Below are positions 43,117-45,236 of a DNA stretch of 64,000 nt, piece after piece. The stretch is from the NCBI GenBank assembly GCA_964617735.1, contig CAZTXT010000001.1:267589-331588 (forward strand), written 5' to 3'. Under the pieces are notes generated by a model that was given only the letters and a program-made list of their open reading frames with translations, did no database searches and had not been told where the DNA came from. A program made the translations under genes and the position numbers. The DNA comes from an uncultured Candidatus Saccharibacteria bacterium (lineage in GTDB: Bacteria > Patescibacteriota > Minisyncoccia > Phycocordibacterales > DSPV01). Within the stretch, counting starts at the first letter, position 1; the number at the start of each line of letters is the position of its first letter.

Positions 43117-44484
43117 CTATTTTTTGACTTCATCTATTCCGCCCACCATGTAGAACTTGTCTTCGGGAATATCGTCCTTGTGCCCATCAATGATTTCTTT
43201 GAATCCGCGAACCGTCTCTTTGCGCGGGACGTATTTTCCGGCGCGTCCGGTAAAGGCTTCGGCGACGTTGAACGGCTGCGAGAGGAAGCGCTGTATCTTT
43301 CGCGCACGCTCCACGAGCTTTTTGTCCTCGTCGGAGAGCTCTTCGATACCGAGTATCGCAATGATGTCCTGCAGGTCCTTGTAGCGTTGAAGGATGCGCT
43401 GTACCTCGCGCGCGACACGGTAGTGCTCGTCGCCGACAAGCGCTGGAGTGAGCGCTGTTGAAGAAGAATCCAAAGGATCAACAGCCGGATAGATGCCCAG
43501 TTCGGTCAGTGGTCGCGAGAGAACGACGGTGGAATCGAGGTGCGAGAAAGCGGTTGCCGGCGCGGGGTCGGTGATGTCATCCGCAGGGACGAAAATGGCT
43601 TGCACAGAGGTGATAGATCCCTTGCCGGTCGAGGTGATGCGCTCCTGCAAGTTGCCCATTTCAGTCGAGAGCGTCGGTTGGTAGCCGACGGCAGAAGGTA
43701 CTCGGCCGAGGAGCGCCGAGACTTCGGAGCCTGCCTGCGTGAAGCGGAAGATGTTGTCTATGAAGAGAAGCACGTCTTTGCCTTCGGTCTCGCGATAGTA
43801 TTCAGCCATGGTGAGCGCGGAGAGTGCGACACGGAGGCGCGCGCCGGGGACTTCGTTCATTTGTCCGAAGACAAGCGCGGTCTGTTTGAGTACGCCCGAT
43901 GCCTTCATTTCGTGATAGAGGTCGTTGCCTTCGCGCGTTCTTTCACCGACTCCAGCAAAGACAGAATATCCTTTGTGCACGGTCGCGACATTTCGGATGA
44001 GCTCTTGGAGAAGCACGGTCTTGCCAACACCTGCGCCGCCGAAGAGTCCGACTTTGCCGCCTTTGATGAATGGTGCGATGAGATCGATGACTTTGATGCC
44101 GGTCTCAAAGATCTCTACTTTCGTTGATTGCGCAGTGAACGGAGGAGCGCCGCGGTGAATGGGCCAGTACTCTTTCGCTTCCGAGGGGCCAAGGTTGTCT
44201 ATCGGCTCGCCGAGGAGATTGAACATGCGGCCGAGGATCTCTTTGCCGACGGGAACGGAAATCGGCTTGCCGGTGTTTTTGACCGCAGTGCCGCGCGTGA
44301 GGCCTTCGGTCGGGCCAAGGGAAACGGTGCGGACCTGTCCGGCGCCCAGCTGTGCGGCGACTTCCAGTACGGTTTTCTTTCCTTCCTTGTCGTGAAGCTC
44401 GAGCGCTGTGTTTATCGAAGGCGGTTCCCCCTCGAACGCGACGTCAATGACCGGCCCAATGATTTGTGATATTTTTCCGGTCAT
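43117..44484 (-). CDS. atpD: F0F1 ATP synthase beta subunit
   Basis: P-loop [22 protein letters not shown]-like region, 455 aa. Confidence 0.95.
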
Positions 44485-45053
44485 ATTTTTAGATTATGAG
44501 GTTTTGCTCCTAAGCCATGTTCGATTACGCCATGTTTTGCTAGAAGCTCGATAAGCCGCGCAGCGCGTTCATAACTGATAGAAAGTTTACGTTGCAGGAA
44601 GGATGGTGATGCTCTACCAGCTTCTCGGACTTCTTTTAGGGCCATTTCATATAAACTATCTTCTTCTGTACCTACTTGGCGGTTCTCAACTTTGTTCACC
44701 AAGTCTTCGTTTCCGAGCAAGACTCTTAAATTATTCTCATTTCTAAGCCTCTCTCCCAGCCTACTTGTTGTTCCTTTTTCCTTCTTGTTTTTACTAAAGT
44801 GGTTAGCTAATCCTCCCAAAGAAAAAGGATCTTTAATTTTTCCTTTGTCTCTTAGGATTAAGAGTATTATTGCTGCAACCGCAAGAACACCAATCCCTAA
44901 GGCGAAAGAAATGATTTGTTCAGAATAGAGGTTCCAAACAAGGAGCGCTATAGCAGTCAAAACGAGAAGAGTTATTATGCTATAAATCCACTCTAAACCT
45001 AAGAGTTTGATGATTGTGACTAAGATCAAGACACAGAGAAGTGCGTATAGCAT
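44481..45053 (-). CDS. Membrane protein with a C-terminal FtsK-gamma-like winged-helix domain, inserted in the atp operon
   Basis: Three N-terminal TM helices and a basic linker. C-terminal [40 protein letters not shown] closely resembles the FtsK gamma (KOPS-binding wHTH) consensus S.S.LQRRLRIGYNRAARLI..ME..GIV. ATGA overlap with the atpD start. AT-rich. Confidence 0.55.
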
Positions 45054-45074
45054 TTTTGATTATGAATTATATCA

Positions 45075-45236
45075 AATCATTTTAATTTTTTGGGACGAAA
45101 AAAGCCGACTTGTTTTTTCCAATCTTCCCACAGTTCGTCTAAGTTAGTTATTTTCCCCGTTTCCCTTAAAACATCTTTAAGGAAATTAATATACTCTTCT
45201 AAGTCTCTTAGGCGCTTATCCTCTTTTACACTCATG
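45075..45236 (-). CDS. Unlisted 53-aa charged helical ORF between atpG and the FtsK-gamma-like gene
   Basis: MSVKEDKRLRDLEEYINFLKDVLRETGKITNLDELWEDWKKQVGFFRPKKLK. The ATG lies 8 nt downstream of the atpG stop. Below the 60-aa track cutoff. The competing plus ORF 45090..45275 is low-complexity. Confidence 0.35.

Follow-up and report, generated by a model that had tools for sequence, protein, structure and literature searches.

A membrane-anchored, motor-less FtsK gamma protein probably inserted between atpG and atpD of a Patescibacteria chromosome

The gene presented here under the name gam190 (positions 44481..45053, minus strand) lies in a 64-kb stretch of DNA, hereafter the window, from the chromosome of an uncultivated, ultra-small Patescibacteria (candidate phyla radiation, CPR) bacterium, where it stands between the ATP synthase genes atpG and atpD. 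It encodes a protein of 190 residues composed of a three-helix membrane anchor and a C-terminal FtsK gamma domain, with no motor. The gamma domain of FtsK reads chromosome polarity and switches on dimer resolution, and its presence on a small membrane protein is an unusual architecture that an earlier note on this DNA had correctly recognised. The same note had called its location within the atp operon unexpected; this location looks incidental, and gam190 is probably a foreign insertion at an insertion-tolerant junction. We propose, with a probability of about 0.7, that gam190 is a real, horizontally acquired accessory gene whose product would act as a membrane tether for DNA or for an Xer recombinase, with no link to the ATP synthase.

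Results

gam190 encodes a gamma domain on a three-helix membrane anchor

gam190 is an intact open reading frame (ORF) of 190 codons with an ATG start, and at its base composition a frame of this length would stay open by chance with a probability of ~2e-6 per frame. The identical protein and gene order were found in independent assemblies of two runs, SRR12313479 and SRR12313480, from which it follows that the locus is not an assembly chimera. The FtsK_gamma profile of Pfam (PF09397) matches the protein with an E-value of 1.1e-16 and a score of 60.7 bits (gathering cut-off 30.6), residues 130-187 aligning with profile positions 2-59 of 63; the profile search that the earlier note had recommended thus returned a significant match. 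Of the NCBIfam FtsK equivalog, only the last 50 residues are matched. A phmmer search against PDB chains retrieved the gamma domains of Pseudomonas aeruginosa FtsK (2J5O, E=1.2e-8) and Escherichia coli FtsK (2J5P, E=2e-5), together with the XerD-gamma fusion 5DCF. The AlphaFold2 model has a predicted local distance difference test (pLDDT) score of 92-96 over residues 130-188, and its top Foldseek targets are 2VE9 and 2VE8, with a root-mean-square deviation of 1.1 Å over 57 columns and 40% identity. The TM-score on the target 2VE9_A is 0.85, 2VE9 being the P. aeruginosa gamma domain bound to FtsK-orienting polar sequences (KOPS). The gamma winged helix-turn-helix, whose fold also matches 2J5P, occupies residues 128-190 (44484..44672, minus strand), with helices at 130-145, 150-157 and 161-173 and a wing strand at 186-188.

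The N-terminal part of the protein (residues 1-69; 44847..45053, minus strand) contains three transmembrane (TM) helices, as the earlier note had read, on the basis of the helices of the AlphaFold2 model, hydropathy and flanking charges. The hydrophobic helices lie at residues 2-18, 21-45 and 47-69, with a pLDDT of ~83. The stretch that follows the third helix (residues 68-80) has a net charge of +2, which according to the positive-inside rule suggests that the C-terminal part is cytoplasmic, and the topology would then be N-out/C-in. Anchor and gamma domain are joined by a charged linker of ~60 residues (residues 70-127, with low model confidence to 128; 44673..44846, minus strand), marked by a pLDDT of 46-56 and by alignment gaps in the homologues; it is longer than in the homologues P0036, P0014 and P0156 described below, and is probably flexible. 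No P-loop and no FtsK_SpoIIIE motor domain (PF01580) were detected in gam190 by Pfam, NCBIfam and a motif scan, in agreement with the earlier note, and Pfam gave no match to the FtsK_4TM anchor. Since the motor and the FtsK-type anchor were both tested and are both absent, gam190 is not an FtsK/SpoIIIE translocase; its C-terminal domain genuinely belongs to the FtsK_gamma family.

gam190 belongs to a small family found in unrelated genomic contexts

Apart from gam190 itself, a word-indexed search of 5.8 billion proteins returned a single weak gamma match. With an exhaustive HMMER search, 1.84 billion representatives yielded 2519 matches at E<=0.001, nearly all of them through the gamma domain, and the best 150 of these 2519 are mostly short, motor-less proteins. 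The architecture is not the one-off that the earlier note had supposed, motor-less gamma proteins, some of them membrane-anchored, being numerous among the best matches. Three classes can be distinguished: C-terminal fragments of ordinary FtsK (class a), proteins of ~200 residues in which two tandem gamma domains follow an N-terminal coiled coil (class b), and proteins with one to three N-terminal TM helices followed by one or two gamma domains (class c). By a simple count on hydropathy and motifs, proteins of class c that start with methionine, combine TM helices with gamma and lack a motor amount to 27/251.

Full-length collinear homologues of gam190 are P0036 (173 residues), P0014 (162 residues) and P0156 (169 residues), to which P0221 (187 residues), judged by eye, can probably be added. 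We define these proteins, together with gam190, as the MLYxLLC 3-TM + gamma family. Its layout consists of an N-terminal M-L-Y-x-L-L-C motif, three TM helices, a basic stretch, an acidic linker and a single gamma domain. The motif reads MLYxLLC(I/V)L, and positions M1, L2, Y3, L5, L6, C7, L9, I14 and L38 are invariant across four homologues. A family profile scores 245-294 bits on the three members from which it was built and 172 bits, at 99% coverage, on P0156, which was left outside the profile. When a profile of the three-TM region was compared with 81 proteins from a metagenome-contig scan, including 59 canonical FtsK of ~740 residues whose gamma domains are related, only E-values above 0.4 were obtained, which argues that gam190 is not a motor-deleted FtsK. 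That scan had recovered mainly such canonical FtsK through the gamma pattern, and its proteins were used for comparison only. Searched with a profile of the TM anchor alone, the 5.8 billion proteins gave no match at E<=0.001, even from the family members themselves, and a scan of viral contigs gave one gamma-domain match and no member of the gam190 family. The similarity ranking of the gamma domains, all at 46-66% identity, does not resolve an origin from a particular FtsK lineage.

The genomic contexts of the homologues are unrelated to one another. The gene for P0036 (locus L086) is flanked by metG and tatD, with an 8-nt overlap into the tatD start, that for P0014 (L083-85) lies in an island with an XRE regulator, an ImmA-type M78 peptidase, DUF4411 and an N6_N4-methyltransferase, and that for P0156 (L088) is found on a short contig where a 27-nt direct repeat flanks it (L088:778-804 and 1330-1356; 24 of 27 positions identical; score 19.5, with shuffles reaching 14 at most). 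The downstream copy of this repeat spans the P0156 stop and the start of the next ORF, and the repeat may be a target duplication left by insertion; flanking repeats were found neither in L083 nor in L086. The GC content of the homologue is 0.37 against 0.43 for its host locus in L083 and 0.35 against 0.47 in L086, and in L088 it matches that of an AT-rich contig. In the loci examined, the homologues never adjoin atp genes. As regards the conservation in relatives that the earlier note had raised, the protein family is thus retrieved in other genomic contexts, whereas the locus is not conserved, the gene being absent from the atpG/atpD junction of the nearest relatives among the matches listed. 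The family shows the pattern of a small mobile accessory gene, though no mobility gene travels along. A limited full-text literature search yielded no account of membrane-anchored motor-less gamma proteins, nor of such proteins in CPR bacteria. It appears that motor-less gamma proteins form a broader population, none of which has apparently been characterised, and that the gam190 family is a small and uncharacterised part of it.

The atpG/atpD junction is a probable site of insertion

On the minus strand of the window, an F-type ATP synthase operon is arranged in the order atpE, atpF, atpH, atpA, atpG, atpD, atpC. gam190 is flanked upstream by atpG (F1 gamma; 45244..46173, minus strand; TIGR01146, E=1.3e-84) and downstream by atpD (F1 beta; 43117..44484, minus strand; TIGR01039, E=8e-237), which are separated by an AT-rich insert of ~760 bp (44485..45243) delimited by its composition and by the size of the corresponding gaps in the loci L003 and L004. 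The AT-richness pointed out in the earlier note is clear, with 31-40% GC compared with 50% for the window. At third codon positions the GC content (GC3) is 0.34 for gam190, 0.34 for a small upstream ORF, orf52, and 0.29 for another ORF of the operon, orf74, against 0.55-0.73 for the atp genes (0.66 in atpD).

The ORF list places orf52, a charged and probably helical ORF of 52 residues, at 45077..45235 on the minus strand. The earlier note had given it 53 residues at 45075..45236 and had placed it after gam190, which it precedes on the coding strand: the atpG stop is followed after 8 nt by the orf52 start, and the orf52 stop after 23 nt by the gam190 start. It is uncertain whether orf52 is a genuine gene; it has no match to Pfam, NCBIfam or PHROG families or in 82 atp loci, and is a singleton cluster in the protein collection. 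In the same operon, the AT-rich orf74 (46180..46404, minus strand; ORF list and composition) fills the gap between atpA and atpG, and encodes a 74-residue product that has two or three Cys residues and a single hydrophobic helix. The GC3 of orf74 is the minimum of the locus, it likewise has no match in Pfam, NCBIfam or PHROG and is a singleton in the protein collection, and it is a second AT-rich insertion within this operon.

Among the matches listed from species-representative genomes, the best for atpG come from Parcubacteria-type metagenome-assembled genomes at 52-54% identity. Among 15 billion proteins, each of AtpD, AtpG and AtpA stands as a singleton at 90% identity, which indicates that no close relative has been sampled. 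In L003 and L004, the nearest relatives among the matches listed, the atpG/atpD junction consists of an AT-rich spacer only, of 103-156 bp, and a tblastn search of 80 atp loci found no sequence resembling gam190 or orf52. Unrelated genes occupy the atpA/atpG and atpG/atpD junctions elsewhere in the CPR. They encode a PemK/MazF toxin, preceded by a small ORF, a paired DUF433 and DUF5615, four-helix proteins of the 23S_rRNA_IVP type and an HXXEE membrane protein. Accessory genes of this kind at atp junctions of other Patescibacteria lie at L003:1682-2872, L004:3680-6001, L009:6921-7400, L036:5525-6001 and L046:1169-1740, and most of them are AT-rich relative to their own contigs. The atp operon thus seems to be a recurrent landing site for foreign genes in Patescibacteria, and operon membership at these junctions should consequently not be read as functional linkage. 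Taken together, the absence from relatives, the unrelated contexts of the homologues, the foreign composition and the other genes at such junctions lead us to conclude that the atp location of gam190 is a site of insertion without functional link.

At its 3' end (minus strand, CCT CAT AAT CTA AAA ATA TGA), the stop codon of gam190 (44483-44481) and the start codon of atpD (44484-44482) overlap in the 4-nt sequence ATGA (44481..44484, minus strand). This overlap is read directly from the DNA; the translational coupling to atpD named in the earlier note is plausible. Consensus scans detected no terminator-like site between atpG and atpD, and the match counts of the promoter and terminator scans were not above those of shuffled sequence. 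Rfam and tRNA scans found nothing in the gam190 region.

A 13-nt direct repeat has one copy, TCATAATCAAAAA on the minus strand, ending at the gam190 ATG (45053..45065) and the other, TCATAATCTAAAA, just upstream of the atpD ATG (44487-44499). It was rejected as an insertion scar, the two copies differing by one mismatch (12/13) and falling at the 95th percentile of shuffles, which is not significant. A similar motif, ATCATAAATCTTAAATCA, is found upstream of atpD in L003, and the final codons of gam190 resemble both TTCATAATCAAAAATG, just 5' of the gam190 start, and the L003 atpD leader, suggesting that the 3' end of gam190 may rest on a duplicated atpD leader; the 13-nt repeat itself may be this duplicated leader. 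An imperfect inverted repeat of 17 nt, pairing atpD codons 4-9 with the region upstream of gam190, was judged to be due to chance.

The gamma domain retains the arginine equivalent to R1289 of E. coli FtsK

In FtsK, one surface of the gamma domain, formed by alpha2-alpha3, serves two documented activities: the recognition of KOPS, 8-bp motifs with three gamma domains per site, and XerD activation (PMC5052618). R1289 of E. coli FtsK is the residue most critical for XerD activation, for which a 9-residue peptide covering it, RQFRIGYNR, is enough (PMC5052618). The equivalent of this peptide in gam190 is RKLSISYER, in which R155 aligns with R1289; within its QRKL context, R155 is invariant across 27 aligned sequences. 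The residues of E. coli FtsK that read KOPS are N1296, R1300 and E1303 (PMC2533119), with which E162, R166 and E169 of gam190 align, so that two of the three are kept; the position equivalent to N1296 varies within the gam190 family (E/A/S/A). KOPS-type recognition, as the earlier note had named it, is hypothetical for gam190. A search for skewed KOPS-like words of 6 to 8 nucleotides on both strands of the window, which is too short to judge the matter, showed none that stands out. The most skewed words are GATGATG-type coding repeats, and the known KOPS and SpoIIIE recognition sequence (SRS) words are nearly absent.

Other arrangements of gamma domains and of the atp locus

Beyond the gam190 family, the searches revealed what looks like an undescribed conserved two-gene module, in which a motor-less gamma protein is followed by a homologous ORF of 128-138 residues with a HAD-like motif I. 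Examples lie at L170:6001-6943, L171:6001-6943, L172:6001-7000, L174:6001-6790 and L177:5525-6338, with sister loci L173, L175, L176, L178 and L179. The partner ORFs share the motif M.IYLDIDGT/V … YWLTTHC … DFIWFDND and a pairwise identity of 36-76%, and have no significant Pfam match. Their neighbours include genes for type I restriction-modification (R-M), UvrD with DUF2779, an SNF2 helicase and an ADP-ribosylglycohydrolase. A tblastn search with five of the HAD-like proteins gave nothing better than E=0.05 in the window or in L083-L088. Among full-length FtsK-like proteins (P0045, P0072, P0108, P0110, P0107, P0153 and P0147), several have two or three tandem gamma domains, and some show, by eye, a duplicated motor, a response-regulator receiver or N-terminal T5orf172/GIY-YIG-like regions. 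Judging from these sequences, the number of gamma domains evidently varies beyond the model organisms.

In the window itself, the atp operon is also split between atpB (52238-52969, minus strand) and atpE (48866-49090, minus strand), which are set ~3.1 kb apart; the gap holds two ORFs on the opposite strand (49190-51856, plus strand) of 591 and 228 residues without Pfam match, the former being AT-rich with a GC3 of 0.38. A single operon hence has three interruptions, namely orf74, orf52/gam190 and the atpB-atpE gap. The atpC product (42881-43114, minus strand) has 77 residues, corresponding to positions 2-79 of the 130-position epsilon-subunit profile. Its C-terminal helical hairpin, which in other bacteria inhibits ATP hydrolysis, appears to be missing, and the atpC matches of relatives cover the same short span. 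Elsewhere in the window, an AT-rich island (18151-18900, falling to 33% GC) with a 242-residue ORF that lacks a Pfam match (17956..18684) lies after a tRNA-Gln (17737-17809) and ahead of a NUDIX gene, and may represent a small insertion beside the tRNA.

Discussion

The sequence and predicted structure of gam190 are consistent with the following scenario. gam190, together with orf52, would have entered the Patescibacteria chromosome at the AT-rich spacer that separates atpG from atpD. Co-directional with the atp genes, inside their operon, and overlapping the atpD start with its stop codon, gam190 would most likely be part of the operon transcript, with termination-reinitiation or leader-independent initiation sustaining the translation of atpD. 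The product would consist of a three-helix membrane anchor that carries, on a flexible linker of ~60 residues, a cytoplasmic gamma winged helix. Since there is no motor, this protein cannot translocate DNA. By analogy with the gamma domain in FtsK, its alpha2-alpha3 surface could bind duplex DNA, and could also contact and activate a XerD-type recombinase through residues that include the conserved Arg equivalent to R1289. The protein would thereby keep DNA or an Xer recombinase at the membrane's inner face. It can be hypothesised that the outcome is either a motor-independent activator of Xer recombination or a protein that competes with the resident FtsK gamma for the DNA or recombinase partners of the latter.

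Several observations weigh against this proposal. The relatives from which gam190 is absent are distant ones only, with an AtpG 52-54% identical among the matches listed. The family has no conserved neighbour that would point to a partner, and neither an Xer recombinase nor a dif-like site nor ftsK was found in the 64-kb window. The gamma domain is, moreover, off consensus at 5/13 nearly invariant positions (K147R, G160S, D169E, E172A and R186H), among them the turn Gly of the helix-turn-helix (G160S) and the wing Arg (R186H), and the binding of DNA or XerD may be weakened by these five substitutions.

A sharper version of our explanation, rather than a true alternative to it, would make gam190 a counter-host factor of a mobile element or phage, either as a decoy that titrates KOPS-like sites or Xer from FtsK, or as an FtsK-independent Xer activator that aids integration or excision, as XafT does for TLC-phi. 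Taken jointly, we hold these two variants to be unlikely, though worth keeping in view. They are in line with the island in which P0014 resides, with the type I R-M, UvrD and DUF2779, and SNF2 helicase genes beside other motor-less gamma proteins, and with the occurrence of the gamma domain in the phage families PHROG 13700, 6576, 36563 and 22882, which match gam190 over this domain only; single-domain FtsK_gamma phage genes have also been reported (PMC8190038), and XafT offers a precedent (PMC6744903, PMC9226527). Against these variants, no recombinase, attachment site or other element gene flanks gam190 in the window, and the viral contigs yielded the one gamma match and no family member. 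In PADLOC-DB, no defence family was matched by gam190 or P0014 at E<=0.01, and membership in a defence system was rejected on this ground.

It could also be argued that gam190 is a decaying or neutral passenger, a recent foreign insert that is tolerated because it would leave atpD expression intact, functionless in its host and bound to be lost. This would suit a lineage-specific insert without close homologue, the most divergent of its family, with its substitutions at near-invariant gamma positions, in a genome whose atp locus holds several other orphan AT-rich ORFs. The 190-codon frame has nevertheless stayed open in AT-rich DNA, against the odds given above, the invariant residues of the gamma core and the N-terminal TM motif are all retained, the high-confidence fold is kept, and the sequence is identical in two samples. 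For these reasons we find a passenger rather unlikely.

An internal deletion of the host ftsK, in which the N-terminal membrane domain and gamma were kept while the linker and motor were lost, would account for the general plan of the protein, as FtsK likewise has N-terminal TM helices and a C-terminal gamma, and the gamma domain of gam190 is of the general CPR FtsK type, being 50-66% identical to many. This derivation is very improbable and was rejected on the foreign composition and on the TM-region profile, which finds nothing in the N-termini of the 59 canonical FtsK, a result in keeping with the missing FtsK_4TM match; in addition, other genomic contexts, unrelated and at least three in number, show the same 3-TM + gamma architecture and motif. 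The position of gam190 inside the operon, in the same orientation and overlapping the atpD start, might suggest that it encodes a dedicated F-type ATP synthase subunit with an accessory or regulatory role (of the AtpI/AtpZ type, for instance), or a membrane DNA-binding regulator of the atp operon. This is scarcely credible and was rejected on distribution, since the position is not conserved in related atp operons, the gene is absent from 80 other atp loci examined, its homologues never stand beside atp genes, its composition is foreign and unrelated genes occupy the same junctions elsewhere.

The proposal of a horizontally acquired membrane tether opens a broader perspective, namely that membrane-anchored motor-less gamma proteins are a natural class of regulators that control, independently of FtsK, how chromosomes or mobile elements are processed in ultra-small CPR bacteria. 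We consider this generalisation doubtful at present. If it were true, gamma domains massed at the membrane would switch on Xer recombination without a translocase, or would blind FtsK to its loading sites, and their genes would spread by single-gene insertion, drawing their expression from housekeeping operons such as atp or metG-tatD. The recurrence of such proteins in several unrelated forms in CPR-rich metagenomes suggests a way to tune Xer recombination or FtsK loading. At the level of annotation, the source databases label the homologues as 'DNA translocase FtsK' or 'FtsK/SpoIIIE-like', and these labels overstate such motor-less proteins, which are not DNA translocases.

Comparison with known systems

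gam190 resembles the gamma domain of FtsK (PF09397; 2VE8/2VE9, 2J5P) in fold, in sequence family and in the alpha2-alpha3 surface, with the Arg equivalent to R1289 and, by alignment, two of the three KOPS-reading residues. In FtsK, however, gamma is the C-terminal appendix of a hexameric RecA-type motor carried by a four-TM divisome anchor, whereas gam190 has no motor, possesses an unrelated three-helix anchor, bears a Glu at the N1296 position, and has the turn Gly and the wing Arg replaced. The re-use of the gamma winged helix outside FtsK as a presumed DNA-recognition module is also seen in phages, where Bacillus phages Sam46 and Sam112 have a small terminase with an FtsK_gamma domain and single FtsK_gamma-like genes occur (PMC8190038); these phage proteins differ from gam190 in having Terminase_2 or other domain partners and no three-TM anchor. 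XafT of the Vibrio cholerae satellite phage TLC-phi is a small Xer activation factor that replaces FtsK gamma on XerD, and its family is DUF3653, not FtsK gamma (PMC6744903, PMC9226527). The Pfam scan of gam190 gave no match to DUF3653, and XafT is not membrane-anchored, so that its resemblance to gam190 would be functional and hypothetical only.

Closer in general organisation are the CPR-type motor-less gamma proteins of 130-210 residues, such as P0019 and P0203 (coiled coil and two gamma domains) or P0235 and P0249 (two TM helices and gamma). Like gam190, they combine an N-terminal anchoring or oligomerising element with one or more gamma domains and lie in variable genome regions; unlike gam190, they have different N-terminal modules and are followed by a conserved HAD-like ORF of ~136 residues, which is absent next to gam190 and its three close homologues. 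A last comparison is provided by laboratory constructs (gamma, gamma3 and XerC/D-gamma fusions; PMC3130261, PMC5052618), which share with gam190 a motor-free gamma and activate XerCD-dif alone. The isolated gamma domain, and more efficiently its triple repeat, does so in vivo as well as in vitro (PMC3130261). These constructs are artificial, soluble and without membrane anchor, yield topologically complex products and require high concentrations. Proteins that naturally carry gamma on a membrane anchor would be a biological counterpart to this motor-free activity of gamma in the laboratory.

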